A stretch of DNA of 64,000 nt, from assembly GCA_001029715.1 (NCBI GenBank), contig CP011212.1, positions 617,715 to 681,714 of the forward strand, in the 5' to 3' direction. The DNA comes from a candidate division TM6 bacterium GW2011_GWF2_28_16 (GTDB lineage Bacteria > Patescibacteriota > Microgenomatia > UBA1400 > PJMF01). Below, piece by piece: positions 6,559 to 62,605 of the stretch (position 1 is its first letter; each line of letters begins with the position of its first letter). A model generated the notes under the pieces. That model made no database searches, was not told the origin of the DNA, and worked only from the letters and a program-made list of their open reading frames with translations. The position numbers and the translations under genes were made by a program.

Positions 6559-6637
6559 ACAATATTTTAAAGAAGCAAGGCTACAAGAAGTGTAGGAAGG
6601 GTGAAATTACTGCGAAATCTGCTATCATATTAGAATA

Positions 6638-7894
6638 ATGCCAAGTGAACTTATCTATCGACTCAAGAGACCTTATCATTTCTTCAAAACTGGCCTAATC
6701 AAGGGACTACCGGCCCGCATCAAATATCTTTTCCCAGATAAGAAACTCAAGATTATCGCCATTACTGGCACTGACGGTAAGACCACTTCTTCAACTTTGC
6801 TTTATCATTTACTTCAAGAAAGCGGCAAAAAAGTCGCTTTAATTTCTACTGTTGGCGCCTATATCGGTGATCAAAAAATTGAGACTGGCTTTCACGTCAC
6901 TAGCCCTAGTCCAGATCAGCTTTTTGCTTTCATGAGAAAGATGCTCCAAGAAAAAACTGAATACTTGGTCTTAGAATTCACTTCTCAAGGAGCTTATCAG
7001 TATCGTCTTTTTGGTATCAAGCCTTTGATCGCTGGCATTACCAATGTCGATCAAGATCATTTTGACTATCATCTCAATTACCAAAACTATCTGGAGGCCA
7101 AAGCCAGTGTCATGCAAAAAGCCAAGACAGTCGTCCTCAATGAAGACGATCAGTCATATTATCGCCTCAAAAAGCTTTTCCCTAGCAGTCAATATAATGT
7201 CTTGGAATATAGCCAAGAACAAAAATTAAATGCCAAAATTGAGCGCGCTATCAAAGAACGTTTTCCAGAGGCTTTTAACCAAAATAATGCTCGTTTGGTA
7301 AGCACCATTGCTTTGGAAATTGGTTTAGACGAAAAAGAAATTAGCCAATCATTAATTAGCTTTCAAGGAGTACCAGGCAGAATGCAATTTATCGAGAACA
7401 CCAAAGGTATTAAAATCGTTGTGGATTTCGCCCACACTCCGCAAGGTTTGCGCAGCGCTTTAACTGCTCTTCGTTTCATCATGAAGAAGGACAAGGTGAA
7501 TGGCGAAGCCAGAGAAGGTGCCCTAGGGCACAAGTTGCCAGGCAGACTAGTCGCTGTTTATGGCTGCGCTGGTCTTCGTGATGCCATCAAAAGACCAATG
7601 ATGGGGGAGATCGGTGCAGAGTTAGCTGACTTACTAGTTTTTACCGCTGAAGATCCACGTACTGAGGATATTTGGTCAATCATTCGACAAATGAAAGAGT
7701 CTTTAACTACTGGCCACGATAAAATTTCCTCTATTCCAAATCGCCAAGATGCCATTGATTTCGCTATCCAAAAACTAGCCAAAAGAGGCGATCTTGTCGC
7801 TATTTTTGGCAAAGGCCCAGAGCAAAGTATGTGCTACGGCACAGAGGAAATCGCTTGGAGTGATGAGGCGGCAGTTAAAAAAGCACTTAAATAA
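6638..7894 (+). CDS. murE: Mur-ligase family enzyme, most likely UDP-MurNAc-tripeptide synthetase (MurE-type) lacking the N-terminal domain
   Basis: ITGTDGKTT P-loop of Mur ligases and a central plus C-terminal Mur ligase domain. It lies directly upstream of murC. Confidence 0.65.
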   Translation: MPSELIYRLKRPYHFFKTGLIKGLPARIKYLFPDKKLKIIAITGTDGKTTSSTLLYHLLQESGKKVALISTVGAYIGDQKIETGFHVTSPSPDQLFAFMRKMLQEKTEYLVLEFTSQGAYQYRLFGIKPLIAGITNVDQDHFDYHLNYQNYLEAKASVMQKAKTVVLNEDDQSYYRLKKLFPSSQYNVLEYSQEQKLNAKIERAIKERFPEAFNQNNARLVSTIALEIGLDEKEISQSLISFQGVPGRMQFIENTKGIKIVVDFAHTPQGLRSALTALRFIMKKDKVNGEAREGALGHKLPGRLVAVYGCAGLRDAIKRPMMGEIGAELADLLVFTAEDPRTEDIWSIIRQMKESLTTGHDKISSIPNRQDAIDFAIQKLAKRGDLVAIFGKGPEQSMCYGTEEIAWSDEAAVKKALK

Positions 7895-7895
7895 T

Positions 7896-9278
7896 ATGGC
7901 ATTTCTAGACGCAAATAACTTCTACTTAGTCGGCATCAAAGGGGTTGCCATGACTTCCGTTGCTCAATGTTTGCTGGACGCGGACAAAACAGTGCGCGGT
8001 TCCGACATTGAAGAAGATTTTGTAACTGAAAAAATTCTTACCGAATTAGCAATCGAGATTGATAACATTTCTACCATTCCAAATTTTACTGAATTAAAAA
8101 TCGACGCGCTCATTTACACCGCTGCTCATCAGGGTGTGGATAACCCTCAAGTTAGAACCGCCATTGAAGCTGGCATTTCTGTTTATTCCCAAGCCGAAGC
8201 TTTGGCTGAATTTTTCAACCAAAAACAAGGCATTGCAGTTTGTGGAGTAGGGGGCAAAAGTAGCGTTTCCGCGATGATTAGTTTTGTTTTGGATAAACTA
8301 GCTCCCGAGCAATTATCTTTTTCCGTAGGCGTCGGTGAAATTATTGGCATGCCAAGAACTGGCCAGTGGAAAAATGAAGCTAAATATTTCGTTGCCGAGG
8401 CTGATGAATACGTCATCGATCCTCACGCTATCGAAAAAGGTGAAACACTCAGACCTAGATTTTCCTTCCTCAATCCTTTCATAACTATCTGTACCAATCT
8501 GAAATATGATCATCCAGATGTTTATAAAAACTTTGGCGAAACCAAAGCTACATTCAGCAAATTTTTTAGTCAAATTAAAAGCAATGGCTTTCTAATCATC
8601 AACGGCGACAATCAAGATTTAGTCGATTTAGCTAAACAAAGCGTCGGCTCTGACATTAAAATTCTGACTTTTGGCGAAAAAACTAATTGTGATTTCAGAC
8701 TCCAAGATTTTGACTTTGACCTCCAAGTCCCAGGTAAATTCAATCTCATGAACGCCCTCGCAGCATTAGCCTGTATTGCTCAACTTGGTTTCAGTGATCA
8801 AAAAATTATTAGCGCCCTCAAGGAATTCAAATCAACCAAACGCCGCTTCGAACTGATTGAAAAAACTGCAGAATATTCGCACTTTGACGACTACGCCCAT
8901 CATCCTTCAGAAATTTTAGCGGTCATTGATACTCTCAATGAAAAATTTGGCGACGAGAAAAAACTCATTTCCTTCCAACCTCACACTTTCTCTCGCACTA
9001 GAGAGCTGTTCAGTCAATTCGTTGATTCCTTAGCCATGCATACTAAGCCAAACGACGAAATTCTCCTGATCGACATCTTCCCCTCAGCCCGCGAAGCCTA
9101 CGACCCAGACATGAGCTGCGACAAACTAGCCGCCGCCGTCAAAAACAAATATCCAGAATGTAAAATCCAAAATCTCAAAGATGTCGAAGGCTTAGCCGAC
9201 TACGTCAAAAACCACCCACACAAAATCTTCATCACCATCGGCGCCGGCAACATCTACCACGCCCATGAATTAATCTAA
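7896..9278 (+). CDS. murC: UDP-N-acetylmuramate--L-alanine ligase. The true start is probably the ATG at 7896, which overlaps the murE stop; the ORF-track start at 7794 is an upstream extension.
   Basis: MurC N-terminus (YLVGIKGVAMTSVAQ), the GxGGKSS P-loop and a C-terminal Mur ligase domain. Confidence 0.8.
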   Translation: MAFLDANNFYLVGIKGVAMTSVAQCLLDADKTVRGSDIEEDFVTEKILTELAIEIDNISTIPNFTELKIDALIYTAAHQGVDNPQVRTAIEAGISVYSQAEALAEFFNQKQGIAVCGVGGKSSVSAMISFVLDKLAPEQLSFSVGVGEIIGMPRTGQWKNEAKYFVAEADEYVIDPHAIEKGETLRPRFSFLNPFITICTNLKYDHPDVYKNFGETKATFSKFFSQIKSNGFLIINGDNQDLVDLAKQSVGSDIKILTFGEKTNCDFRLQDFDFDLQVPGKFNLMNALAALACIAQLGFSDQKIISALKEFKSTKRRFELIEKTAEYSHFDDYAHHPSEILAVIDTLNEKFGDEKKLISFQPHTFSRTRELFSQFVDSLAMHTKPNDEILLIDIFPSAREAYDPDMSCDKLAAAVKNKYPECKIQNLKDVEGLADYVKNHPHKIFITIGAGNIYHAHELI

Positions 9279-47673: not shown

Positions 47674-48036
47674 ATGAAATTTATTAAAGCGATCATTTCC
47701 TCAATTCTAACCATTGCTCTTTTAGCCTGGTTTTTCCCAAATATTAATTACAGTGGCTCACTTACTTTAATTATTGCTGCTGTTGTTTTGACTTTGCTAG
47801 AAAAACTCGTCAGGCCAATTCTTAAAATTTTGTTTCTGCCAATTAACGTAGTAACTCTAGGGCTTTTCTCTCTGGTTATTAATGTTTTTATTCTTTACTT
47901 AGCTACTTATCTTGTCCCGGGTTTTGTAATCAGTAACGTGGTTATATTTGGAATTCACTTCAATCAATTCTTTTCATTGCTTCTGGTCTCATCCTTGATT
48001 GGTTTTCTGCAAGGGGCTTTCGCCATGATCTTGTAA
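47674..48036 (+). CDS. DUF360/phage-holin-4_2 family small 4-TM membrane protein
   Basis: LPINVVTLGLFSLVINVFILYLATYLVPGF block characteristic of PF04020. Confidence 0.6.
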   Translation: MKFIKAIISSILTIALLAWFFPNINYSGSLTLIIAAVVLTLLEKLVRPILKILFLPINVVTLGLFSLVINVFILYLATYLVPGFVISNVVIFGIHFNQFFSLLLVSSLIGFLQGAFAMIL

Positions 48037-48055
48037 AATGTTATAATAAAAGATA

Positions 48056-49087
48056 ATGAAAATTACTCAAATTGCCCTAATCTCCTTTGTTTTATTTCAG
48101 TTCCTAATCAGTTCCTTGATTAGTCCAAGGTTTGCTTTAGCTCAAACCAGCACTGCTAAAACAATTAATGTCTCAACCACTGATACTTTATTAGAAAATC
48201 CCGAGGCCACTCTTGCTGGAGAGGCAGCCGAATCCACTGATAGTGGCAAGCTTTCTTCACCTTCAGCTGAGGTAGTAGAGAAGTTGCAACAGAAAACCGA
48301 CCAAGATATTACAGAAACTAGTGGTCAGAAAAAAAGTGTTTTAGCTGCTTATTTAGACGAACATCCAGTCGGAAAATTGAGCTGGAATAACCTTATTCAG
48401 AAAGCCATTCGTAAAGCTATTTCTAGTGGTATGCCTGCCAATATTATTGTTATTTTGCTTATTTTCCCAATTATTGCCTCCTTAGTTGCTTTTTCTAGAC
48501 ACGTCATTGGTTTAAAAGGCTTTGGCATCTATATCCCAGCTGTTTTATCAGTAGCTTTTGTGTCTACTGGTATTTTAACTGGAGTAACCGTTTTTGTAGC
48601 TGTTTTATTAGCTGCTCTTTTCACCAGACCAATTCTTAAAAAATTGAAGCTACCAATGCTCCCAAGAACCGCCATGCTACTTATGAGCGTCTCGATTACA
48701 GTTCTGGCATTGATGTTAGTTGGTTCAATTTATAACATTGATTTAGTTATTGATATCAGTATCTTTCCTCTGTTAATCATAATACTTTTGACCGAAAACT
48801 TCATGGAGACCCAGCTTTTTAATAGTCAAAAAGAAGCTCTGCAAATAACTTTTGAGACTTTACTTATTGCTGTTCTATGTTCACTAATTCTTGGTTCAGA
48901 AACTATCCAAAAATTTGTTATTTTAAGACCAGAACTCACCTTAATCGGAGTCGCTCTAATCAACTTCGCAATTGGTAAATACACTGGCTTACGCTTCCTT
49001 GAATATCTAAGGTTTAGAGATCTGCTAAATCAAAATAATAAGTTTAAAGACACTTCTTCAGATAATAATTCTCAAGAAGAGGAATAA
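48056..49087 (+). CDS. Seven-TM membrane protein with an N-terminal secreted region, resembling the 7TM module that partners RimK-like ATP-grasp/transglutaminase systems
   Basis: A signal peptide and ~110-aa extracytoplasmic segment precede seven predicted TM helices. It sits immediately upstream of the ATP-grasp gene. Confidence 0.5.
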   Translation: MKITQIALISFVLFQFLISSLISPRFALAQTSTAKTINVSTTDTLLENPEATLAGEAAESTDSGKLSSPSAEVVEKLQQKTDQDITETSGQKKSVLAAYLDEHPVGKLSWNNLIQKAIRKAISSGMPANIIVILLIFPIIASLVAFSRHVIGLKGFGIYIPAVLSVAFVSTGILTGVTVFVAVLLAALFTRPILKKLKLPMLPRTAMLLMSVSITVLALMLVGSIYNIDLVIDISIFPLLIIILLTENFMETQLFNSQKEALQITFETLLIAVLCSLILGSETIQKFVILRPELTLIGVALINFAIGKYTGLRFLEYLRFRDLLNQNNKFKDTSSDNNSQEEE

Positions 49088-49092
49088 GTCTA

Positions 49093-50382
49093 ATGTTTGT
49101 TAATAAAGCCAAAGATCTCTTGGGAATTAATGCTCGTAATTCTTTGTACCTGAGCCGTAGTTCTGGTAAAGCCAAGGCTATTGTTCATTCCAAATACGCT
49201 ACTAAAATTCTTTTACGAGACAATGACATAGCCACTGCAGAAATTTATGGCATCCTTGGTACAGGAGAAGATGTTAATGATTTTGATTGGCAAAATTTAG
49301 ATAAGAATTTCGTGATCAAACCAACCAACGGCTATGCTGGCACTGGAGTAGTAGCTTTTCGTGAAAAAACTGCCGATGGTGTTTGGATTGACATGCTCGG
49401 TAAAAAATGGGATTTAGCCGACTTAAAATTGCATTGCGATGATATTCTCTCTGGTCAATATAGCATTCATGGATTAAATCATAACGTTATTATTGAAGAA
49501 AGAATTCCAATTCATCCAAAATTACTTAAATATTCATATAAGGGAACCCCTGATATTAGAGTCATTGTTTTTAACAGTGTTCCAGTCATGGCTATGTTGC
49601 GCTTACCAACTGAAGAATCTGGTGGCCGCGCTAATGTTACCCAAGGAGCAATTGCTGTTGGTATAGATATCGCCACCGGAATTACTACTTATGCCGTGGC
49701 TCATAAAAGTAATGCCATCCGTTATTTGCCAGGTACCAAAAAGAAACTTAATGGAATTATTATTCCAGAGTGGGACAGAATGCTCGAGACTGCAGTTACT
49801 GCTAGTAATGCGGCTGAGCTAAATTTTGCTGGCGTAGATCTTTTCATACACAAAGAAAAAGGACCCATGGTCGTGGAGCTCAATGCAGCACCTGGACTAA
49901 CTATCCAAGCTGCTAATCGAGCAGGTTTGCGTAGACGCTTGGAAAGAGTCGAAGACCTTAGTATCCAAAATCCAAAACATGGAGTAAAAGTTGCTCAGGC
50001 ACTTTTTGCCAGCGATTTTGCATCTAAAATTAAAAATAGGGCAGATTTCCCAGTTGTTTCTCTCCAAGAAGAAGTTATTGTTTGGGGAGATGATAAACAA
50101 AAGATTGAAACCACTGCCTTTTTAAACACTGGTCGTTTCAGTAGTGCTATCTCTAAAAAATTAGCTCAAGAACTTGGCTTAATTGATGTTGATGACTTAC
50201 TCTGGTTCCAGTCAGAACAAGAAGAGGGAAAAGTTCCAGTAGTTGAAGTCAAATTTAAGATTAAGGAACAAGTTGTTAAAACAACTATGATCGTCAGTAA
50301 TAAATTAAATAGCAAAAAAAATAAAATTGAAATTGGCCGTCAGGATTTAAAAAACTTTATCATTCGTTTTGATGAAGAATAA
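49093..50382 (+). CDS. RimK-like ATP-grasp ligase (alpha-L-glutamate-ligase-related) fused to a C-terminal retropepsin-like (RimB/PF05618-like) domain
   Basis: ATP-grasp blocks FVIKPTNGYAGTGV and AGVDLFIHKEKGPMVVELNAAPGL. The C-terminal ~120 aa has FLNTGRFSSA in place of the DTG(A) retropepsin catalytic motif. Confidence 0.65.
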   Translation: MFVNKAKDLLGINARNSLYLSRSSGKAKAIVHSKYATKILLRDNDIATAEIYGILGTGEDVNDFDWQNLDKNFVIKPTNGYAGTGVVAFREKTADGVWIDMLGKKWDLADLKLHCDDILSGQYSIHGLNHNVIIEERIPIHPKLLKYSYKGTPDIRVIVFNSVPVMAMLRLPTEESGGRANVTQGAIAVGIDIATGITTYAVAHKSNAIRYLPGTKKKLNGIIIPEWDRMLETAVTASNAAELNFAGVDLFIHKEKGPMVVELNAAPGLTIQAANRAGLRRRLERVEDLSIQNPKHGVKVAQALFASDFASKIKNRADFPVVSLQEEVIVWGDDKQKIETTAFLNTGRFSSAISKKLAQELGLIDVDDLLWFQSEQEEGKVPVVEVKFKIKEQVVKTTMIVSNKLNSKKNKIEIGRQDLKNFIIRFDEE

Positions 50383-51352
50383 AAACATGCCTAAACTAAA
50401 TGACTTAGTTCCAACTAATTTAGAGAGTGAAAAAGAAAAATTTTTTGCTTCTGGTTTTCGTTATAATCCGCAATTCATTTATCAAAAGAATATCTCCGAA
50501 AAAGAACTAATCAGATATGGCAAACCAAAATTATGGTACTTATTTTTGGCCAAAAGAATTCTCAGAAAATATTTGAAACAGAATGATCTTGTAAGTCAAA
50601 AAATAAATAATAAGATTTTTCTTGACCAAGATGGAGTAGAGGACTTAATTGAAGAAAGATTGGGCAACTATGGTTTAGCTAGTCGCTATAAAATTATTTT
50701 TTCTAAAGATTTTATCAGTCGGATTGCAGTCAATAATAACAATGAAGTTATTAAAGTGCGCCTGCCAATAATGATCGATAAAAACGAGATTGAAGCCATC
50801 CTAAATCATGAGATAGATACCCATATAATTAGACAGTTAAATTATGAAAGGCAACCTTGGTTTAAAAAGAAAAAAAGCAACGCTTTTAAGCCATATCTGC
50901 GCACCGAGGAGGGTCTCGCTGCTGTCAATGAGTTGATTGTAAGCGAATCTAAACTAGCTTATAAATCAGCAGCTAATTATTTGGCAGTTGATCTGGCTCT
51001 TAAAAAAGATTTTGTGACGGTTTTTAATTTCTTCTATAAAATCTGGCAAGATTCGGAGAGAGCTTGGACTTGGACTTTGAAGAAAAAAAGAGGAATAAGA
51101 GACACTAACAAAAAAGGAGCTTTTACCAAAGACTTAGTTTATTTTGAAGGTTTCATGCAGGTTCTACGTTATCTCAAAAAAAATGATTGCAATCCAACTG
51201 AGCTTTACTATGGAAAGATAAATTATAAAGACGTAAAAAAAGCCAAAAAAAACTGCTCTCAAGAAGAATTAATTTTGCCAAAATTTTTCACAAAAGACAA
51301 AGAAGCTTACAAACAAGCCGTAACTGAAATTATTAAGAATAATTTATTTTAA
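50369..51352 (+). CDS. DUF1704/MATCAP-family putative metallocarboxypeptidase (QEGLA-motif protein)
   Basis: Atypical zinc motif HEIDTH (HExxxH) followed ~30 aa later by TEEGLAAVNE (QEGLA-like). Confidence 0.6.
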   Translation: MMKNKNMPKLNDLVPTNLESEKEKFFASGFRYNPQFIYQKNISEKELIRYGKPKLWYLFLAKRILRKYLKQNDLVSQKINNKIFLDQDGVEDLIEERLGNYGLASRYKIIFSKDFISRIAVNNNNEVIKVRLPIMIDKNEIEAILNHEIDTHIIRQLNYERQPWFKKKKSNAFKPYLRTEEGLAAVNELIVSESKLAYKSAANYLAVDLALKKDFVTVFNFFYKIWQDSERAWTWTLKKKRGIRDTNKKGAFTKDLVYFEGFMQVLRYLKKNDCNPTELYYGKINYKDVKKAKKNCSQEELILPKFFTKDKEAYKQAVTEIIKNNLF

Positions 51353-52592
51353 TAGCTTCTTTCACCTGTTTAAACAACTGAATAGCTAGATTTTTACTCT
51401 TTAAACAATCATTAGCCTCTACATAAAAACTCACAATAGTTTTTCCACCAAACTTAGCTTGCTCCGCTAAATCACCAATTTTATCTCTTATTTTTATGTT
51501 GCTGACAGCTGGATTTTTATACAAAAAATCTAAATCTATTTTTTTAATCAAGCCTTTCTTATCAGCAAAATATTCCACTACTGAAATGGCTCTTTGTGGC
51601 TGATCTATTTCTTCAATATCAAGACCAGCGGCAGTTTGAAACACTGCAAGACTATAATCAAATCCAGTGGTCAAAATTGTCATTTCAGCACGATTGCCAC
51701 CACCCCTAGGGGTAGATTCAATTACTGAGTACTGATTGTTTTTCTCATCAAAAAATACTTCAGTGTGGCAAACACAGTTTCTAGCAGAAAGAGCATTGAG
51801 GGCTTTTGTCACCGTTTGATAAACTAGCTTTTCTTGGCGCTTCGTAAGCACGGTCGGCATAGTTCTAATTGGTAAATAAGTATCATCTAACCCCAACTCA
51901 TGAGCCATAACGTATTCACAAATAGGAGTATGAATGAGACGATTCCCTGAAACAAAGGTGTCAACTGTCAACTCTCTACCATAAAGCATTTCTTCCAATA
52001 AAAACTGACAATCCTCTGATTTATGTTTATAACCCTCAACTGGTTTGGAAGTGACATAACCGCTAACTTGGCTTTTCAAAAAAGCTAATTTTTCAAACAG
52101 ATCTTCTTTAGATTTAACTTTAACCACATAATTCGAATGAGCAGCTGAAGTTTTTTTAAGGATTAAAGGAAAAGAATGTCTTTCCAAAAATTCATCTAGA
52201 TGATTTAAATTGTCTAGACAAATCCCATCGGCACAGGGAACCTGTGCTGCTAGCCATTTTTGCTTCATTAAATATTTATTACAAAAATTTCTAGAGGTTG
52301 CATAGTCAATACCATCTAAACCAAGATATTGGTTAATCGCTCCAACTATAGTTACATAGTTCTCATGCCTTGTTAAAACAACATCAATTTTTTCGCCCTG
52401 ATCTATGGCATTTCTTAATTGCTTCCAATTGTAAATATCTTCAACCACTAAGACTTGGTTAAAAAGTTTTTCATATTCATTTTTGTACTTATCACGATTA
52501 ATTAGTAAACTAATTTTAGCGTCAGTTTTTAAAGCTGATTCTAAATAAATTTTCTTTCCACCAAAGCCAATCATGAGAAAATGAAGTTGCAT
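51333..52592 (-). CDS. ATP-grasp domain enzyme (carboxylate-amine/peptide ligase type), convergent with the DUF1704 gene
   Basis: PLILKKTSAAHSNYVVKV, EEMLYGRELTVDTF and C-terminal ATP-grasp blocks. An N-terminal pre-ATP-grasp domain is present. Confidence 0.6.
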   Translation of the reverse strand: MQLHFLMIGFGGKKIYLESALKTDAKISLLINRDKYKNEYEKLFNQVLVVEDIYNWKQLRNAIDQGEKIDVVLTRHENYVTIVGAINQYLGLDGIDYATSRNFCNKYLMKQKWLAAQVPCADGICLDNLNHLDEFLERHSFPLILKKTSAAHSNYVVKVKSKEDLFEKLAFLKSQVSGYVTSKPVEGYKHKSEDCQFLLEEMLYGRELTVDTFVSGNRLIHTPICEYVMAHELGLDDTYLPIRTMPTVLTKRQEKLVYQTVTKALNALSARNCVCHTEVFFDEKNNQYSVIESTPRGGGNRAEMTILTTGFDYSLAVFQTAAGLDIEEIDQPQRAISVVEYFADKKGLIKKIDLDFLYKNPAVSNIKIRDKIGDLAEQAKFGGKTIVSFYVEANDCLKSKNLAIQLFKQVKEAIKINYS

Positions 52593-52655: not shown

Positions 52656-54698
52656 TCAAATTTTTTTGATTTCTAGGGGAATCTCTTCTTCTTTTTTCTC
52701 GAGGGAAAACAATTGGCTGGCTGAGATCAGGCCATCTTTTTCTAAAGCATAGTTTTTAGCAAAAGCAGAGATGAAAACTTTGTCAAAAGAATGCTTAATA
52801 ACTTTAGATTTTGAAAATTCAAAAGGCATAACCAATGATTGAGCTTTTTCACTGCCTTCTTCAAATAACGACATAATCAGGTTGTTGGAAAATTGATTAC
52901 CACTAGATAATTTTACTAATAAATTTAAAGATTTTTGCTTTTTAAGTAAGTAGAACAATTTATAAATAAGGATAAACAAATAGACTAATAAAATTGCACT
53001 ATTAAACATACTTTGATAACGCAAAGCAAAAAGCAAAGCAAATAATAAAGAAATAATCAAAAACCAAAATGGATAATCTAATAAATACAAAACAAAAATA
53101 CGCAATCTCTCAAAAAATGGCAACTTTTCTTGACCGGTAGCCCGCAAGGTAGGAATTAAGATCGGCTGACCATGATAATTCTCATCATCAAACATTTGAT
53201 TTTGATAGAACTGCCAAAAATCTAGTTGATTTGGCTTCTCATCGCCAATTGGATAATAGAAGTTACCATCTTTGACCTGCAATCTCCAAGAGCTACTGAT
53301 TGGAAAATTTAAATCGTTGAAATTACCCTGCAAATTAGTAATAGTAAAATCAAGCAACTGCTCATTTTGATCAAACAGCTCCACTTTCACTAGGGGACTG
53401 GCTAAAGTTTCCTTATATTCAAAAACCAAATGCTTATTAGCTTTAAATATAAACGGGAAAAGGAGCATTGAAACTTTTTTTAACAAGGAAATGGAAATAT
53501 CTTTCATAAACTTGCTTAGTAAAAGCAAAAAGGCTGAGAAATAAAATAAAAGCAAAAATAAAGAAGTGAGAAATAAGGATAAGTTTAGCCAAGTTTTCGA
53601 CTTTAAAAAAGTTCTTAGATAATCTCCAGTTGTCTCTGGCAAAAGTTCTATCAATTCGTCCCCAACTTCATGGATAATTTCTTTTGGCGGAACAATTGGA
53701 ATAATTCCAGTCGGTGCTGGTGATTGGGTTGAAGTCAAAGTTGGACTAATGCTTGGTTTAGAACTTGGCTCAACACTCGTGCTAACACTAGGGCTTAGCG
53801 TTGGAGTTGCAGTTGGAGTTGTCGTTATAGTTGTCGGCGTGGCTGTTGGCCAGTATTGTAGACTGATGCGAAAATAAACTTTTTCCAAAACACTAACCTG
53901 ACCAGCCTGATCAGTAATAATAAAATCAAGCCTAATATCAACATCGCGAGGTAGAATTCCCAGTTTTAATTCATAATAACCACTACTATCAATAGTAGTA
54001 TTAAAAATCTGAGTAGGATCGTCTGGGATAATAACAGTCAACTGAACGTTACTATTAGCTTCGCCACCAGCTATAAGGATTGGCTCATTAGCAGTAGCAT
54101 CATTTTGAAAAATAAGGATTGGGCTACTTGGCACAGTTCCCACATCTGCGGCTGAAATACTTACAACAGTATCTCCAATTTTTGTAAGTATAAAGCTTGG
54201 CGCCTGAGTATCAATTCTAAAGTCCCAGGTATCCGATGATGCACTCAGCCCTGCATAATCAACTGCCACTATTTTCCAGGTGGCAGAACCGTCTGAAAGA
54301 GCGTTTTTTGGAGTTAGAGTGTAAGTCCCATCTATTCCATCATAATCTAACAAATAATGGCTATTATCAGTGTCTACCAAGGGAACATTGCTATAAAAAA
54401 CATTATTATTTAAATAAAAAACGTAATGTGACAAAGCAAGATTGTCAGTTGATTCATACCATTTAAAAGAAGGGGTGCTGTCACTTAAAATCGCTCCATC
54501 ACTAGGTTCTATTAGAATTGGTGCTGATGGTGCTTCTAAATCTGGTATGTTTGCACTTATATTTATATCTTCAGCTAAAACCACAGATTTAGCAGAAAAA
54601 AGCAAAAAAAGAGTCAAAAAAGATAAGAAGAAATTAGTTTTCTTGCTGTGGATTTTTAGGTTCTTCATTATTTGTTTCCAAATCAGTGGTGGAAGCAA
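52656..54698 (-). CDS. Large surface/membrane protein: signal peptide, Ig/FN3-like repeats, Thr/Pro-rich linker and a C-terminal multi-TM domain
   Basis: Signal peptide, beta-rich repeats, the linker TATPTTITTTPTATPTLSPSVSTSVEPSSKPSISPTLTSTQSPAPTG and at least 5 hydrophobic helices at the C-terminus. Confidence 0.5.
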   Translation of the reverse strand: MLPPLIWKQIMKNLKIHSKKTNFFLSFLTLFLLFSAKSVVLAEDINISANIPDLEAPSAPILIEPSDGAILSDSTPSFKWYESTDNLALSHYVFYLNNNVFYSNVPLVDTDNSHYLLDYDGIDGTYTLTPKNALSDGSATWKIVAVDYAGLSASSDTWDFRIDTQAPSFILTKIGDTVVSISAADVGTVPSSPILIFQNDATANEPILIAGGEANSNVQLTVIIPDDPTQIFNTTIDSSGYYELKLGILPRDVDIRLDFIITDQAGQVSVLEKVYFRISLQYWPTATPTTITTTPTATPTLSPSVSTSVEPSSKPSISPTLTSTQSPAPTGIIPIVPPKEIIHEVGDELIELLPETTGDYLRTFLKSKTWLNLSLFLTSLFLLLFYFSAFLLLLSKFMKDISISLLKKVSMLLFPFIFKANKHLVFEYKETLASPLVKVELFDQNEQLLDFTITNLQGNFNDLNFPISSSWRLQVKDGNFYYPIGDEKPNQLDFWQFYQNQMFDDENYHGQPILIPTLRATGQEKLPFFERLRIFVLYLLDYPFWFLIISLLFALLFALRYQSMFNSAILLVYLFILIYKLFYLLKKQKSLNLLVKLSSGNQFSNNLIMSLFEEGSEKAQSLVMPFEFSKSKVIKHSFDKVFISAFAKNYALEKDGLISASQLFSLEKKEEEIPLEIKKI

Positions 54699-55641
54699 CT
54701 GGATTAATTTCCTTACTAGCTTCTTTACGCTTCTTTACTGAAATGAACAAAATAATGCCTATCAAAATTACAACTAAAGTTAATAAAATTATTTTGACAG
54801 GAATCAAATATAAACCAGCGCTTGCCACCATCACGCCACCTTGACTACCATAGGCTGACTCGACAATTGCTTTATAGTAACCAAGACCCCAAACTTTATT
54901 CCAAGTTCCAGAAAAACTTCTATTACTTTTTGGGAAAATGTTTTTAGCCTCAAGCTCAATACTTTCAATTTCTTTGCCAAATAAATTATAAATTTTTAAA
55001 ATTGGCTTCGTATTAATATGGACATCTGACTCATTATTTATATCCAAAGAAAAATCAACTGGACCGTTTTCTAAAAACTTTGGCCAATTAAAACTGGTTA
55101 TATAAGCTTCTTCATTAATTGGACCTGTTACTATCACATAGAGTAAAGTTCCCACCCTTTGTGAAATACCAGCTCCAGAATCTACAACTGGATTTGAATT
55201 TATTGGGCGATGATAAATCATTGCATAGTGACCACCAGGAAGAGCGTCTTTTGGAACTTCAATTAAAACATTCACTATCGCAACTTCTTCATTGGCCAAG
55301 GTATGTTCTGCTGGAGCCAAAGTTAACCAAGTAGCTAGACTCCAACGTAAATCTGCTTCTTCTGCACTAATTACTATGGGAGTAGAACCATCTTCAGCCA
55401 CTACAAAATCGGCAACCTGACTTTCTAATACAACTTGGTCAGTAGAACCATTGCGCACTTTGATTTGAACTTGTTTTTTCTCTCCAGGAGCAAGACTAAT
55501 GCTGAAATCGTCCCCTAACCGAACTGGTGTTGCTGTTAAAGACATTGAAGAAGAAGCTTGGGCTTGATTGAAGAAGGAAAAAAGAAAAAATAAACTTAAA
55601 ATAAGAGTATTAATTATTGAAGATGGGCAGATCTTTTTCAT
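54634..55641 (-). CDS. Membrane-anchored cell-surface protein, DUF916/DUF3324-like (PapD-like beta-sandwich N-domain), paralog 1
   Basis: Signal peptide, then LTATPVRL…GEKKQVQIKVRNGSTDQVVLESQVADF. A C-terminal TM helix is followed by KKRK. It is similar to ORF 57160-58218. Confidence 0.45.
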   Translation of the reverse strand: MKKICPSSIINTLILSLFFLFSFFNQAQASSSMSLTATPVRLGDDFSISLAPGEKKQVQIKVRNGSTDQVVLESQVADFVVAEDGSTPIVISAEEADLRWSLATWLTLAPAEHTLANEEVAIVNVLIEVPKDALPGGHYAMIYHRPINSNPVVDSGAGISQRVGTLLYVIVTGPINEEAYITSFNWPKFLENGPVDFSLDINNESDVHINTKPILKIYNLFGKEIESIELEAKNIFPKSNRSFSGTWNKVWGLGYYKAIVESAYGSQGGVMVASAGLYLIPVKIILLTLVVILIGIILFISVKKRKEASKEINPVASTTDLETNNEEPKNPQQEN

Positions 55642-55656
55642 ATTTTTGTTTTTAAT

Positions 55657-57111
55657 TTAAAAAGTAGCAGAGGCCGTATAAACAAGATAATTTTCATAAC
55701 CTCCAGCCGCATTGGTAGCAGCAGGAGTAATACGATAACAAACGTCGACTATGTCGCTAGATGCTACGGTTGCTTTATTAAAAATGGTTTGTGCCACTTC
55801 AGAATCTGCCAAATCAGCAAATTGCTTAGCTGAAAAAGTTCTACTAGATTCATTATAAGTAAAAACCAAAGTCGGAGTACCTGCAGCCGCAACTAAACTA
55901 TAACCAAAACCAGGATCTCCAGAGGCATCTGTCCAATCAGCTGAGGCAGTGTGAGAAGCTCCAGTAACACTAGCGTCACTTATACAGCTAATGCTCGCTG
56001 AACCATCTCCAGCACAAGCAGCGGCATCGCGACCAAGCTGATCATTTTCAGCAGCAGTAACCGAATAGCCTCCAATGGCATTAGTCGTGACAGTCAATCT
56101 TTGGGCAGCATCTGTAAAAGAAGCAACGGTTAGATCACCGAAAGGAACAGTTAGGGCAGTGGTAGTTACATCAGTACTAATTCCGCAAGCAGAGCTACCA
56201 GAATTTAAACCAGCAATTGTAAAAGTTAGCTGTGGAGCAATGGTGGCAGAAACCTTGACTGCATCAATTACGCCTATTTTAGTAACAGTTTGATCAATTA
56301 CAGAATCAGCCGAATCTCTTTGCTGAATAATAACCGCATAAGTGTCTGCCTGGCCAAGCACGTGATCAGTAGAACCTGATTTTGGAGCTGGATTAATCAA
56401 GTCAGAAATAATAAAAGCCTCTTCAGTTGTCCCATCAAAAGGAGTTCCAACAGCACCCAAGCCGTCATAAGCACAAATAAAAGAGTGATAGTTTATTCCA
56501 TCGAGTGTTACTGGAACAGCCTCGGCATTATTTGAAGTAGCAGTGAAAGTACCATAACTAGCAGTAACTGGACAGGCAATCGAAGCTGGAGTTCCATCAG
56601 TATTACCAAACTCAAAACCACCTTCATCTGGATAGCCATCGTGAGAAGTACTGGTGGCTGAAACTGCAGGAACTAAGATTCGAAAAGAACCAGCATTTAA
56701 AGCACTGATGGTAGTTAAGCGCACTGTTAAAGTAGCAGATTGAGAAGCATAGACACCAAAATCATCTGTTATATCACTTGCATCTAAACCAGCAGTTAAA
56801 TTAAAAGTATTGTCGCTAGCGTCATCAATAGTTGTCGCTACAGTATATTCAGAATCATTAATCAAAACAGTGTCACGGTTTTGTAGTTGTAAAACTGATT
56901 CAGATGGGTAATTGGTAACATCAATAGTTACCAAAGAGGAACCGGTTATCTGAGCTCCTTCCAAAGCACCTTTAAAAGAAAGCCTTGCATTACTAAGGGT
57001 GGCTGAAGTACTAGTAAATTCTCCAGAGAAAACTACAAACTTTTTAGCTACAAAAAAGACAATAAAAACTGATGACAGTAAAAATAAACACTTCTTAATA
57101 TTTAAGTTCAT
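55657..57111 (-). CDS. Secreted T/S/A-rich surface protein sharing a conserved C-terminal domain with ORF 58230-59000
   Basis: A signal peptide and repetitive beta-rich sequence. The C-terminal block …ADWTDASGDPGFGYSL…AKQFADLADSEVAQTI…GGYENYLVYTASATF is shared with …TSWTDPAQAGFGFNASG…FRQFADNEASEAMQQI…GNYQTSIVFVAVPGY. Confidence 0.5.
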   Translation of the reverse strand: MNLNIKKCLFLLSSVFIVFFVAKKFVVFSGEFTSTSATLSNARLSFKGALEGAQITGSSLVTIDVTNYPSESVLQLQNRDTVLINDSEYTVATTIDDASDNTFNLTAGLDASDITDDFGVYASQSATLTVRLTTISALNAGSFRILVPAVSATSTSHDGYPDEGGFEFGNTDGTPASIACPVTASYGTFTATSNNAEAVPVTLDGINYHSFICAYDGLGAVGTPFDGTTEEAFIISDLINPAPKSGSTDHVLGQADTYAVIIQQRDSADSVIDQTVTKIGVIDAVKVSATIAPQLTFTIAGLNSGSSACGISTDVTTTALTVPFGDLTVASFTDAAQRLTVTTNAIGGYSVTAAENDQLGRDAAACAGDGSASISCISDASVTGASHTASADWTDASGDPGFGYSLVAAAGTPTLVFTYNESSRTFSAKQFADLADSEVAQTIFNKATVASSDIVDVCYRITPAATNAAGGYENYLVYTASATF

Positions 57112-57159
57112 AGTTCGTATTGTTTTGATTTAAATTTTACTATTTTAATATAAACCACT

Positions 57160-58218
57160 TTAATTATTCAAGTCAACAGGTTTTTTAAAAGATTTAACAA
57201 GCAAATTAAAAGTCCAATATATGAGCGGTAATAAAATAGCGATTAATAAAACAGAAAAAGGTAAAACAATCACTCTTTTTTGTAAAATATCATCACCAAC
57301 TTTTAGTTCTAAATCATAAGCTCCAATAAGGAAACTTTTTTTGTAAAATTGTTTTGTTTTTAATTTTTCATTAATAAATTTTGCTTTCTTTGCTTCGTAG
57401 TCTTCGCCAGCGGCTATTTTAATATCTTTGCTTTCCTCCATTTTTGCTAAAGTTTCAAGATCTTCCTGCAACATTGACCTTACTAATCTTTTTCCTCCAG
57501 CTAAAACCATGTCTGGATAAAGCTCATATATTTCTACATTCTGATCTGGCCAATGACTAATTTTAATATACCCATCGACTGAAGTAGCATTAATTCCTAT
57601 GTTTTTAACTAAAGCCGAAAAATTAAAACCAATAAAACTATCAGCCATTTTTGGCAAAAAGAATTGTTCAATGGTCAACTCTCCGCGATTTTGATCATCA
57701 GCACTAACTAACAAAATCACATTACTAACTACGACTGCAGAAAGAGAAGTGTCTTTACTAGAATCATTAGTGTAAAGAAGTTGCTTAGCTTGAAAAAGAA
57801 TAGATAAGTAATGTTCCTTATATTCAGCATCAGAGGGTAGAGCAATTACAAAATTAAGAGTTTGCTCTTCACCTGGCTTAATAATAAAGCTCTTACTCCA
57901 TTTATTTTCATCACCATCAAGATTGAGATACTTAAAATCACTTTTCTGCTCCAAAATTACTTGACCCACTTGATCGTCGCTATGAAAATTAACCAAAGCA
58001 GGAGTAATTTCTAAAGTATAGAGCCCATCATTTTTTAATTTAATTTGATGATTAACACCAGCTCCTGGTTTAACCGACAAATACGAAGTAGGAGGAAAAA
58101 CTTTTAAATCCAAAGCTGAAGCAGCTTTGATAAGATTGGAATTGATGGCTAAAAAAAATAATGCAAAAAAGCAATAACGCATGCAAACAGTGACTTGATT
58201 TAAAAATTTTAAAAACAT
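57160..58218 (-). CDS. Membrane-anchored cell-surface protein, DUF916/DUF3324-like, paralog 2
   Basis: Signal peptide, then LKVFPPTSYLSVKPGAGVNHQIKLKNDGLYTLEITPALVNF. A C-terminal TM helix is followed by a KSFKK tail. Confidence 0.45.
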   Translation of the reverse strand: MFLKFLNQVTVCMRYCFFALFFLAINSNLIKAASALDLKVFPPTSYLSVKPGAGVNHQIKLKNDGLYTLEITPALVNFHSDDQVGQVILEQKSDFKYLNLDGDENKWSKSFIIKPGEEQTLNFVIALPSDAEYKEHYLSILFQAKQLLYTNDSSKDTSLSAVVVSNVILLVSADDQNRGELTIEQFFLPKMADSFIGFNFSALVKNIGINATSVDGYIKISHWPDQNVEIYELYPDMVLAGGKRLVRSMLQEDLETLAKMEESKDIKIAAGEDYEAKKAKFINEKLKTKQFYKKSFLIGAYDLELKVGDDILQKRVIVLPFSVLLIAILLPLIYWTFNLLVKSFKKPVDLNN

Positions 58219-58229
58219 ATTAACTTAAT

Positions 58230-59000
58230 CTAATACCCTGGTACCGCTACAAAAACTATACTGGTCTGATAATTGCCAGCCGTTTGATTGCCAGGCATTG
58301 AAGCCTTGTAACTAATGGTGGCAGTGCGATCCAAGGCAACATTACTCGAACCCATAATCTGTTGCATCGCTTCGCTCGCTTCATTATCAGCAAACTGACG
58401 GAAATAATTAGTGTTTACAAAATCACTAGATACATCGTCACCGCTGGCATTAAAACCAAAACCAGCCTGAGCTGGATCGGTCCAAGACGTAGCAATTGTT
58501 TCATCACAATCATTTGCATCACAAGTTGTGTCAATAATAGTATCCGAACCAGCAACCATTCTTAAAGGATGGTTTTCAAAAGCATAAACTCCATAACCAC
58601 CAGCTCCATTAGTGGTAATATTAATTGTATGGGAATCAGTTTTAAAACTGTTTGCAAAAAGCTCTCCTAATTCAATACTCAACTTAGAAATACTAAAAGC
58701 AAAATAATCTATTTGATAAACGTATTGAAAACCACTCCCAATAAAATAATTGCTACTACCATATTGTCCATAAGGTCCAACTGCTAAACCACCCATGGTG
58801 TCAGATAAAATATAAGTATCTCCAGATCTTTTTCCAGAAGCCATATTGAAATTACCAAACTGAATTTTGTAAGAGTCAGACTCCATGTTGTCAGCAAAAA
58901 CCTGGCTTTTTTGTCCGGCAAAAAAATAAAACAGAATAAAAAATAAGAAAACCGGTTGAAAAAGTTTAGCTTTCATCATTTTTTTGAGCCGAGAGCTCAA
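58230..59000 (-). CDS. Secreted surface protein sharing a conserved C-terminal domain with ORF 55657-57111
   Basis: Signal peptide and shared WTD…GFG…QFAD…Y…VxxA C-terminal block. Confidence 0.5.
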   Translation of the reverse strand: MSSRLKKMMKAKLFQPVFLFFILFYFFAGQKSQVFADNMESDSYKIQFGNFNMASGKRSGDTYILSDTMGGLAVGPYGQYGSSNYFIGSGFQYVYQIDYFAFSISKLSIELGELFANSFKTDSHTINITTNGAGGYGVYAFENHPLRMVAGSDTIIDTTCDANDCDETIATSWTDPAQAGFGFNASGDDVSSDFVNTNYFRQFADNEASEAMQQIMGSSNVALDRTATISYKASMPGNQTAGNYQTSIVFVAVPGY

Positions 59001-59742
59001 TTTCTACCTCTTCTATTAAAGCCTCCATTTTTTCATCATTCAGCTTGTTTTTTTCAGCAATTTGTTTTGTTAGCAGATTCAAATCTCTTTTAAGCACCTT
59101 AACTTCCGATTCTATTGTTGACTTATTTTTTTCAGGAAAGCTGAGAAGGAATTCCAACATTGGCAACCGTCTATCTAGAAGAGAAGAAACGAATTCAGCA
59201 ACTGCTCGATCGTCGCTCTGAGCCCTATTTAACTCTCTCGCCTCAGCGTCAACTAACAAAGAGCTATGGTAAGCCTTCTCATATTGATCCTTAGCAAAAA
59301 GATAAAAAATCATCACCACTGGCAAAGCCAATAAATTAGATAATTCTGAAACTGACAAAACAAAATTACTACTTGTGGCAATACTCAGGCTGAAATGAAA
59401 AACCATGATTTCTAAAGCCATTAAAATTGCGACTTTATTAAGAGTCGCTAAAGCAATAAAAAACAATTCAATAAAAGTCAAAGCAAAAAATGGAGAAGAG
59501 AGCGAACCGCTGGCTCCTATTAATAGTAAAAAAGCAAAATTAATTAAAGCTAAATTAGCTGAAGAATTTTCAGGTAAAATCAAATAAACACGCCCTCTTT
59601 GTTTTTTTTGCAAAATTAGATATATAGCGGTAATTAAGGCAAAAACTTGTAGTGAATAATGTCTCAAAAAAGGCACTTGTAAATACAAATAAGCACCAAG
59701 AACACTCATCGTTAACAAAATAGCATGTTTAATGGCAGGCAT
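58966..59742 (-). CDS. Polytopic membrane protein with a cytoplasmic coiled-coil tail; first gene of the surface-protein operon
   Basis: About 5 hydrophobic helices followed by a charged coiled-coil C-terminus. It overlaps the next gene by 35 nt. Confidence 0.45.
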   Translation of the reverse strand: MPAIKHAILLTMSVLGAYLYLQVPFLRHYSLQVFALITAIYLILQKKQRGRVYLILPENSSANLALINFAFLLLIGASGSLSSPFFALTFIELFFIALATLNKVAILMALEIMVFHFSLSIATSSNFVLSVSELSNLLALPVVMIFYLFAKDQYEKAYHSSLLVDAEARELNRAQSDDRAVAEFVSSLLDRRLPMLEFLLSFPEKNKSTIESEVKVLKRDLNLLTKQIAEKNKLNDEKMEALIEEVEIELSAQKNDES

Positions 59743-60069
59743 ATTAAAAAGTATAAAGTAAATAAGCCATATTGACTATTGTCTTTTAACAAACTTGCCC
59801 TTAAAATAACTCCCACTTAACAGTTTTGTTCTCAGTAGGGATAAAATTCCTCAGCGTTTAAGAGATTAGGGAAAGCTAATAAAAGTTTTCTTTCCTTTTT
59901 TTGCCTTTTGCGCTTAGCTTAGTTGAGTAAAAGATCTTTAAAAAGTAAACAGCCAAATAATTGGAAATAAATATAGTGATAGAAAGTGTGCAAGGATTTT
60001 TCTCCAAAAGAGAAAGATCCGTCAATTTTTTAAGTAAATCAAATTAGTTTTTATAGAGCTAATCAAACT

Positions 60070-61557
<1,488 letters not shown>

Positions 61558-61710
61558 TAAGGAGAATGGGTAGGGGTTTTTTCACGACCTCCTTCTCCCA
61601 TCTAGGGTGACCTAGATGAAACAACAACAAAATCCTATGACCAAGTGTCTAGGTCTCACTTTCTGTCACTGTATTTGTATCTAAATTGGCTTTTTACTTT
61701 TGCTTTTGAT

Positions 61711-61803: not shown

Positions 61804-62025
61804 ATGACAGAACAAAAGTATAGAGATCACAGTCAAGAAACTATGAGAAAAGGAATTCCTCCCGATCCAGAAATAATGAAAAGATTTGAACAAAATAGAA
61901 CAGAAGTTGTTAGAGCATTCAAAAATCCCGACCTATCTTACAAAGAAGCAATGGCTTTAGCGATTGATTTACTTGGAGAAGAAGAAGCAAGAGCAATAGG
62001 AGAGGGGCTGACTAAAGAAAATTAA
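61804..62025 (+). CDS. Small hypothetical protein (73 aa) in the 16S/tRNA-Ile spacer
   Basis: ORF with a plausible promoter (TTCACA-17-TACAAT, 61751-61779). It shares an A(M)ALA..LLG.EEA motif with the next ORF. Confidence 0.4.
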   Translation: MTEQKYRDHSQETMRKGIPPDPEIMKRFEQNRTEVVRAFKNPDLSYKEAMALAIDLLGEEEARAIGEGLTKEN

Positions 62026-62033
62026 GGAAAAAC

Positions 62034-62234
62034 ATGACTACCTATCGTGAGGAAGAAAATAACAAATTGATAAGCGATTTTCAAGAATTAAGAAAAGAGC
62101 ACGATAGTAAAATGGAAAAAGCCAGAGAAATACTAAAGCAAGACCTTCCTCCGTTTTTAGCATTAGCAATGGCATCTAGAATTATTGGCAGAGAAGAGGC
62201 CAAAAAACTGCAAAAAACTATTTCTAAAAAGTAG
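62034..62234 (+). CDS. Small hypothetical protein (66 aa), weak paralog of the preceding ORF
   Basis: The two are tandem with an 8-nt gap. The shared motif is LALAMASRIIGREEAKKL vs AMALAIDLLGEEEARAI. Confidence 0.4.
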   Translation: MTTYREEENNKLISDFQELRKEHDSKMEKAREILKQDLPPFLALAMASRIIGREEAKKLQKTISKK

Positions 62235-62461: not shown

Positions 62462-62535
62462 GGGTGTGTAGCTCAGATGGTTAGAGCGCAGTCCTGATAA
62501 GACTGAGGTCCTTGGTTCGATTCCAAGCACACCCA
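62462..62535 (+). tRNA. tRNA-Ile (anticodon GAU)
   Basis: GGGTGTGTAGCTCAGATGGTTAGAGC…CCTGATAAG…GGTTCGATTCC…CACACCCA. Confidence 0.85.
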
Positions 62536-62605
62536 CTATAGAGCGAGAATGGCGCCTGTCTAGTACTCTAAAAGTACTCTATCTTTCCTCAAAGGTGCTT
62601 GAAAT

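Follow-up and report, generated by a model that had tools for sequence, protein, structure and literature searches.

The Pam pilus is described from cryo-electron microscopy (cryo-EM) structures of thin filaments that belong to Ca. Mycosynbacter amalyticus; its subunits are joined by donor-strand exchange, with the linker of each inserted into the C-terminal domain (CTD) of the following one (Troman et al. 2026, bioRxiv 10.64898/2026.03.03.709456). The tip pilin PamT has a single domain, the FimC/PapD-like chaperones PamC and PamD carry a transmembrane (TM) helix at the C-terminus, and PamR is an RbmA-like terminator or anchor (bioRxiv 10.64898/2026.03.03.709456). The system is usher-less, with homologues in Saccharimonadia and Microgenomatia (bioRxiv 10.64898/2026.03.03.709456). 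The pili were experimentally seen in one Saccharimonadia species, and they are thought to establish the first contact of ultrasmall parasitic bacteria of the candidate phyla radiation (CPR) with their hosts. The preprint is also the source of the NCBIfam models NF058578 (PamR), NF058579 (PamT) and NF058581 (Pam pilin C). Here we analysed a six-gene minus-strand operon located in a 64,000-nucleotide stretch of contig CP011212.1 (positions 617,715 to 681,714, hereafter the window) from the bacterium GW2011_GWF2_28_16, which GTDB places in the Microgenomatia. The operon probably encodes a divergent, Microgenomatia-type version of this CPR pilus.

A second described system that bears on this locus is the WxL/Csc cluster of Lactobacillales and Bacillales. 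Its canonical form contains a single WxLIP and two WxL proteins, a small one and a large one; the WxLIP, composed of DUF916, DUF3324 and a TM helix, corresponds to CscA, and the small and large WxL proteins correspond to CscB and CscC (PMC10599100). A disordered hairpin of the WxLIP is predicted to become a strand that 'completes the WxL beta-sandwich', and the system is described as a peptidoglycan-bound platform, not as a filament (PMC10599100). In all but name, the predicted completion by the hairpin is donor-strand complementation.

Gene order and secreted proteins of the operon

The earlier note on this DNA had described a six-gene operon on the minus strand, and we found the six co-oriented open reading frames (ORFs) with the coordinates, sizes and order that it gave (Table 1). 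We refer to their products as P1, A, B, A', B' and P6. The genes are tightly packed, with intergenic distances from P1 to P6 of -14, 11, 48, 15 and -35 nt (negative values are overlaps). Public gene calls on the same DNA (GCA_018817305.1, JAHIUB010000002.1, a Patescibacteria metagenome-assembled genome (MAG)) give products of 258, 248, 352, 484, 335 and 670 amino acids (aa). The GC content of the operon is that of the remaining window, and promoter and terminator scans of the locus showed no enrichment compared to shuffled sequences.

To follow the block across genomes, the window was compared with six further Microgenomatia-type loci, one of them from a Woesebacteria MAG, whose A' orthologues are 45-56% identical. 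The gene order P1-A-B-A'-B'-P6 is kept in all seven of these divergent loci, and BLAST confirmed the orthology at each position. The best-conserved gene of the block is A (52-59% identity among loci) and the least conserved is B (24-43%), while the P1 orthologues are 28-47% identical and occupy the same position in 7/7 loci. The flanking genes vary: mostly leuS-comEA-comEC is found upstream, and in the window the 16S rRNA gene. Because the order of the six genes is constant across divergent loci with differing flanks, the block behaves as a functional unit. Named homologues of the operon proteins belong to Pacebacteria, Woesebacteria and Patescibacteria and thus lie within the CPR, to which the Pam system is restricted.

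Two deviations were seen in individual loci. In L129, an opposite-strand gene (6388-7971) for a 527-aa TPR-repeat protein splits the B and A' orthologues, so the six genes are not always one transcript. In L004, an additional gene of 236 aa (8029-8739) with a weak N_methyl (type IV pilin-like) match lies between the A and B orthologues, and BLAST linked it to none of the six proteins of the window.

A and A' had been said to share a C-terminal block, and this was confirmed. BLASTP aligned the two proteins with E=4e-11 over 165 aa, including the WTD, GFG and QFAD motifs, and profile alignment with hhalign joined A 99-246 to A' 319-481 (99.4%, E=8.9e-22). The hidden Markov models (HMMs) of the two families cross-match at 6.5e-16 and 2.6e-20, and the block is not a low-complexity coincidence. 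Hydropathy shows a signal peptide as the sole hydrophobic targeting element of both proteins, which end directly after their last beta-strand, without TM segment or charged tail. No further copies of the A/A' or B/B' families were found in the 64-kb window.

In A, the signal peptide is followed by a very conserved, Gly/aromatic-rich N-terminal segment of 65 aa and then by a Pam-type CTD. This protein matched the NCBIfam model CPR_Pam_pilin_C (NF058581) with E=2.6e-7 and 30.8 bits over model positions 5-148 of 148, and the same model was matched by 51 of the 52 A-family and 17 of the 58 A'-family members. The model CPR_pilus_PamT (NF058579) was matched by 25/52 A-family members (best E=8.9e-11); in the members that were examined individually, the alignments were end-to-end (model 5-241 of 241, 27-32 bits). 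The A of the window itself had no match to the PamT model at E<=1. Since A consists of the CTD and a short conserved N-terminal segment only, we propose that it is a small secreted PamT-like subunit which forms the tip or cap. Two cysteines, C153 and C158, are invariant in the A family and six are invariant in the A' family, consistent with the disulphides described for Pam pilins.

The AlphaFold 2 (AF2) model of A' is confident (predicted local distance difference test (pLDDT) 92.8) and all-beta. Behind the signal peptide it is divided into a beta-rich N-terminal region (aa ~31-282), a linker strand and a Pam-type CTD (aa 302-484). The N-terminal part has ~16 strands versus the 9-11 described for PamB and PamA. 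Among 58 homologues, conservation is highest in the linker, with a mean entropy of 0.95 compared to 1.37-1.52 for the N-terminal region and the CTD, and next come the C-terminal strand and the core of the CTD. The same pattern of conservation is reported for PamA and PamB in the preprint. We therefore propose A' as the large, secreted two-part pilin that forms the shaft, with the linker as candidate donor strand. Direct sequence searches with A and A' against PDB chains gave nothing relevant in the copies searched, which did not contain the Pam structures 25PZ and 25QA, and the fold searches with A' returned only generic beta-sandwich proteins with low TM-scores.

The two remaining proteins of the block are membrane proteins. 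By hydropathy, P1 has 4-5 TM segments within its first ~150 aa; the C-terminal ~100 aa are charged and probably helical. P1 matched no family of Pfam or NCBIfam. P6 has a signal peptide, Ig-like domains, a linker and three TM segments, in agreement with the earlier description of an Ig-repeat/Thr-Pro-linker/multi-TM protein. Two Ig-like domains (aa ~40-265; Big_13 E=7e-10) precede the T/P/S-rich linker, after which come TM1 (aa 359-389), a CarboxypepD_reg/SdrD-B-like beta domain (SdrD B-domain match E=4e-6, with Pfam hints also in the orthologues), a TM hairpin (aa 522-577) and a second beta domain. This architecture is conserved in the alignment of the orthologues, and P6 is the final gene of the block in 7/7 loci. 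The combination of Ig-like domains, linker, three TM segments and last-gene position in seven loci makes P6 a candidate for the base or anchor of the fibre, and it may be a functional analogue of PamR.

The first strand at the mature N-terminus of P6 (54551-54580), INISANIPD (consensus xVTAxVPD), is similar to the stretch VKVSATIAPQ (consensus VKVTATVAPQ) in the linker of A'. A like sequence, SLTATPVRL, opens mature B'. For a role of the P6 N-terminus as a mimic of the A' donor linker this is a weak hint: it was the top match in about half of the loci only, and between short T/V/A-rich strands such a match could be due to chance.

Membrane-anchored proteins with homology to WxLIP

The proposed paralogy of B and B' was supported by hhalign (99.6%, E=2.4e-24), with 281 aligned columns that span both beta domains and the TM helix. 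The BLASTP match between them is weak (E=0.007), and the family HMMs cross-match at 5.7e-7 and 4e-17. Both proteins have the same architecture of a signal peptide, two beta domains, one C-terminal TM helix and a Lys/Arg-rich tail; hydropathy confirmed the C-terminal helix and the lysine-rich tail that had been noticed before (KSFKK in B, KKRK in B'). Homologues of B were represented by 513 sequences. None of the NCBIfam Pam models matched the B family, the B' family, P6 or P1, and the only match to the PamR model was a trivial TM segment in one P1 orthologue (E=0.023).

The identity of B' as a DUF916 protein follows from several lines of evidence. B' matched Pfam PF06030 (WxLIP_PGBD, which equals DUF916) with E=1.6e-5 and 25.3 bits (cutoff 27.3 bits), and 45 of 57 members of its family matched the same model (best E=1.8e-8). 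A protein 99% identical to B' is named 'DUF916 domain-containing protein' by NCBI. In the AF2 model of B' (pLDDT 86.7), two beta-sandwich domains are followed by a TM helix and a disordered tail. The top Foldseek matches of this model were 9i1y_A, a WxLIP of Enterococcus faecium (E=5e-13, TM-score 0.55), and 9i25_C, a WxLIP bound to a long WxL protein, followed by RbmA and then by the chaperones CfaA, YadV, CupB2, DraB and CsuC (E ~1e-8, TM-score ~0.5). The alignment to WxLIP extends over ~260 residues and both domains, and the top PDB sequence match of the B' family profile was likewise EfmWxLIP1 (E=0.0015). The structures 9i1y and 9i25 do not come from the Nat Commun 2025 'signal-strapping' paper.

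As an independent test of the helpers against WxLIP, we assembled a Firmicute reference set from 120 loci with a conserved DUF916 motif, which yielded 104 WxLIP ORFs and a WxL cluster of 231 members. Samples of both were validated against Pfam, where the WxL proteins matched with E=1e-44 to 1e-73 and the WxLIP ORFs consisted of WxLIP_PGBD and WxLIP_HBD. Against the WxLIP alignment, hhalign gave 97-98% for both helper families (97.9%, E=4.6e-13 for B' and 97.4%, E=1.1e-11 for B), with reversed-profile controls below 6%. Under relaxed settings B and B' were colinear with WxLIP over the entire architecture, including the TM helix and the basic tail. Thus B and B' are membrane-anchored proteins of the DUF916/WxLIP family, and we regard them as putative chaperones 1 and 2 of the system. 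The second domain did not follow: none of the 57 B'-family members matched DUF3324/HBD (PF11797), domain-2-only hhalign gave ~2%, and the sequence of domain 2 does not mark it as DUF3324 in either B or B'.

The residues ~147-162 of B' form the sole internal low-pLDDT segment of the model and align with a loop and strand of EfmWxLIP1. This loop is plausibly the equivalent of the hairpin loop described for WxLIP (PMC10599100), and together with the conserved strand behind it we list it as a candidate complementing strand. In domain 2 of B we observed a charged, probably helical insertion of ~35 aa, KMEESKDIKIAAGEDYEAKKAKFINEKL, which is not present in B' (57283-57462, region of aa ~253-312). PamD has an extra element when compared to PamC (bioRxiv 10.64898/2026.03.03.709456), but it is at the hinge and may not be equivalent to the insertion of B. 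During the motif search, matches of the back-translated DUF916 motif were also obtained on contigs with the labels Chloroflexi, Bdellovibrionales and Gammaproteobacteria (L017, L049, L064), which may be false positives (~4 chance matches were estimated) or DUF916 proteins outside Firmicutes and CPR.

The Csc/WxL likeness suggested in the earlier note thus held for the anchored helpers and for the layout of the cluster, but not for the secreted partners. As in WxL clusters, the helpers here are accompanied by two secreted partners, a small one and a large one, which have their CTD in common. The DUF916 domain of the helpers is homologous to that of WxLIP, and both kinds of helper consist of a signal peptide, a pair of Ig-like domains, a TM helix and a basic tail. 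The helper has a flexible loop, which in WxLIP is predicted to complete the beta-sandwich of the partner. In contrast, the partners themselves are not WxL proteins: no A'-family member (0/58, E<=1) and no A-family member (0/52, E<=10) matched PF13731, and hhalign of A and A' against the validated WxL alignment stayed below 1% (E=0.17-0.96) for full-length, mature and domain-only profiles in local, relaxed and global mode. Neither A nor A' contains a W-x-L motif, of which WxL proteins have two; each has a single Trp, in WTD. No WxL chains were among the top fold matches. The cluster also differs from WxL in having two helpers versus one, in the second helper domain and in the lack of an LPxTG CscD-type protein. 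We further considered whether the Pam-type CTD is a diverged WxL domain, since YQTSIVFVAVPGY resembles TLTWxLxDxPxN by eye, and hhalign rejected this at the sequence level.

Proposed assembly and competing explanations

The locus has in common with Pam its CPR host, a two-part pilin whose linker is conserved and whose CTD is Ig-like, a proposed single-domain PamT-like subunit (A), conserved pilin cysteines and the location of the parts in one operon. B and B' would be its two PapD-like chaperones with C-terminal TM helices, in line with the description of PamC and PamD. Both systems are without usher and sortase. In contrast to Pam, there is one large pilin (A') instead of PamA, PamB and PamE, no detectable PamR orthologue and in its place the conserved membrane proteins P1 and P6, and the flanks are the 16S rRNA gene or leuS-comEA-comEC, versus ATP synthase. 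The operon is also much more divergent, with scores under the NCBIfam cutoffs. As this kind of pilus was described in 2026, is already in NCBIfam and has reported homologues in Microgenomatia, we regard the locus as a divergent member and not as a new kind. It stands out by its compact layout of six genes, by its conserved P1 and P6 components and by the lack of a detectable PamR.

Three results weigh against the assignment to Pam. The A' of the window had no direct match to CPR_Pam_pilin_C, and the PamR model (NF058578) matched neither P6 nor its orthologues. Moreover, all scores against the Pam models (~27-34 bits) are well below the cutoffs curated by NCBI, which are 55 bits for CPR_Pam_pilin_C and 240 bits for the PamT equivalog. 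With scores this far under the cutoffs, A and A' are distant relatives and not equivalogs.

A static platform of the WxL/Csc type, in which B and B' hold A and A' non-covalently as monomeric surface adhesins and no filament is formed, would explain part of the data. Both helpers are homologous to DUF916/WxLIP proteins, a WxLIP bound to a long WxL protein gave the best structural match, and a small partner, a large partner and an anchored helper are the canonical layout of a WxL cluster. In addition, the WxLIP loop completes the beta-sandwich of its partner without reported polymerisation (PMC10599100). We nevertheless consider a static platform unlikely, because A and A' lack every tested WxL feature and match models of filament-forming Pam pilins, and because the inter-domain linker is the most conserved part of A', which fits a donated strand better than a passive connector.

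Considerably less probable is a generic envelope or S-layer-like set of Ig-fold proteins that have no specific assembly relationship and resemble Pam only through the common beta-sandwich fold. The generic, low-scoring fold matches of A' and the Pam-model matches under the curated cutoffs would agree with such a set. However, E-values of 1e-7 to 1e-11 were obtained over whole models in nearly all A-family members, the WxLIP links from hhalign and Foldseek are highly specific and their reversed controls were clean, and the six-gene synteny is strict across lineages at 45-59% identity. A sortase-assembled, covalently linked pilus of the Gram-positive type is effectively refuted: the six proteins have no LPxTG-like sorting signal or YPKN pilin motif, the window has no convincing sortase signature, and the ends of A and A' leave no TM segment or charged tail for sorting.

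Chaperone-usher pili such as Pap, Fim, CFA/I and Csu offer a further comparison for the Pam-type reading. They resemble the system encoded here in the two-domain chaperone fold of B', in the proposed donor-strand complementation followed by exchange and in the use of a dedicated tip subunit. In contrast, there is neither an usher nor an outer membrane here: no Usher/PapC Pfam match was found in the six proteins, and the conserved block holds no other candidate for an outer-membrane usher. The putative chaperones are membrane-anchored and not soluble, they give no Pfam PapD matches, and the donor strand would be an internal linker and not an N-terminal extension.

Taken as a Pam-type pilus, the operon suggests the following route of assembly. 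All six products would be exported or inserted via Sec, and a thin surface filament would be built without usher or sortase. When A and A' subunits emerge from export, B and B', held at the membrane by their C-terminal TM helix, would cover the open groove of these subunits with a strand supplied by the flexible loop that ends domain 1, and would then pass the subunits to the growing fibre. The adjacency of the genes suggests that B serves A and that B' serves A'. A, as the PamT-like single-domain subunit, would begin the fibre at its distal end, and we infer that A' subunits then join by donor-strand exchange, in which the linker strand of each subunit fills the CTD groove of its neighbour. 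More speculatively, P6, whose two Ig-like domains would lie outside the cell, could fix the base of the fibre in the membrane, and its Pro/Thr-rich linker would cross the wall. In analogy to M. amalyticus, such a fibre may bring about contact with the host cell.

The locus thus represents a compact six-gene version of Pam that is conserved across Microgenomatia-type genomes, and with P1, P6 and no detectable PamR it offers concrete candidates for fibre anchoring in another CPR class. The most interesting by-product is the DUF916/WxLIP homology of the helpers, which joins two literatures that do not cite each other. DUF916, WxL and Csc appear nowhere in the Pam preprint (bioRxiv 10.64898/2026.03.03.709456), and the WxL paper never mentions chaperones and describes WxLIP as a peptidoglycan- and host-binding 'interacting protein' (PMC10599100). 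Should this link be correct, structures from one system would be informative for the other as well. Because B and B' are homologous to Firmicute WxLIP, the Pam pilus and the Firmicute WxL/Csc clusters could descend from one ancient, monoderm-specific usher-less system of which they are two branches, an idea that we put forward tentatively and consider possible, if doubtful. In both branches, a DUF916-type chaperone anchored in the membrane would complete secreted subunits whose Ig fold is incomplete, and would deliver them. The helper half of this idea is given by the homology described above, and its partner half gave no sequence signal. If it were true, WxLIP would have to be seen as a chaperone of the pilus type and the WxL domain as a diverged counterpart of the Pam pilin CTD, and WxL clusters might polymerise or exchange strands.

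Feature coordinates and neighbouring genes

Table 1. Genes and features of the six-gene operon (positions in the window) and of the giant ORFs (positions in the locus named)
Feature	Position	Strand	Residues	Basis or remark
P1	58966..59742	-	258 aa	first operon gene; ORF list and hydropathy
A, from TTG	58230..59000	-	256 aa	
A, from ATG	58230..58979	-	249 aa	248 aa in public gene calls
A, C-terminal Pam-type domain	58233..58703	-	aa 93-249	
B	57160..58218	-	352 aa	
B, TM helix	57187..57291	-	aa 310-344	hydropathy; KSFKK tail after
A'	55657..57111	-	484 aa	
A', linker strand AVKVSATIAPQLTFTIAGL	56209..56265	-	aa 283-301	candidate donor strand
B'	54634..55641	-	335 aa	
B', DUF916-like domain	55204..55539	-	aa 35-146	PF06030
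B', flexible loop and following conserved strand NSNPVVDSGAGISQRVGTLLYVIVTG	55126..55203	-	aa 147-172	candidate complementing (G1-like) strand
B', second beta-sandwich		-	aa 163-279	AF2 model
B', TM helix	54709..54798	-	aa 282-311	AF2; hydropathy places TM at 268-306; KKRK tail
P6	52656..54698	-	680 aa	
P6, from ATG	52656..54668	-	670 aa	
P6, T/P/S-rich linker	53679..53858	-	aa 271-330	38/60 residues T/P/S
Giant ORFs	L004 16719-21428; L127 16437-17494; L128 14646-17452; L129 14759-17473			

In four loci, giant ORFs of 2,511-4,322 aa with Phage_int_SAM_1 matches lie 2-4 kb downstream of the P6 orthologue (Table 1), and the one in L129 also matches Peptidase_S74. These ORFs may equal the 'tail fibre-like protein' that is co-localised with pam operons in the Pam preprint. 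In the window, a giant ORF is absent from the position downstream of P6. Instead, the operon is adjoined there by a cluster (47674-52592) with Pfam matches to ATP-grasp_4, MATCAP, ATPgrasp_ST/RimK, 7TM_transglut and a Phage_holin_4_2-like family. MATCAP, ATPgrasp_ST/RimK, 7TM_transglut and Phage_holin_4_2-like genes are also found downstream of the pilus block in L126 (12647-17455), and none of the cluster was found downstream of the block in the more distant loci. The cluster resembles a peptide-ligase/transglutaminase membrane system and probably has nothing to do with the pilus.

On the other side, upstream of the operon and divergent from it, there is a complete 16S rRNA gene (60069-61556, plus strand). 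Behind this gene come two small ORFs (61804-62025 and 62034-62234), tRNA-Ile(GAT) (62462-62536) and then lon. As no 23S gene follows the 16S gene, the rRNA genes appear to be unlinked. Two minus-strand ORFs, 60073-60570 (165 aa) and 61313-61630 (105 aa), are listed in this region as lying wholly inside the 16S gene, and both are almost certainly spurious.

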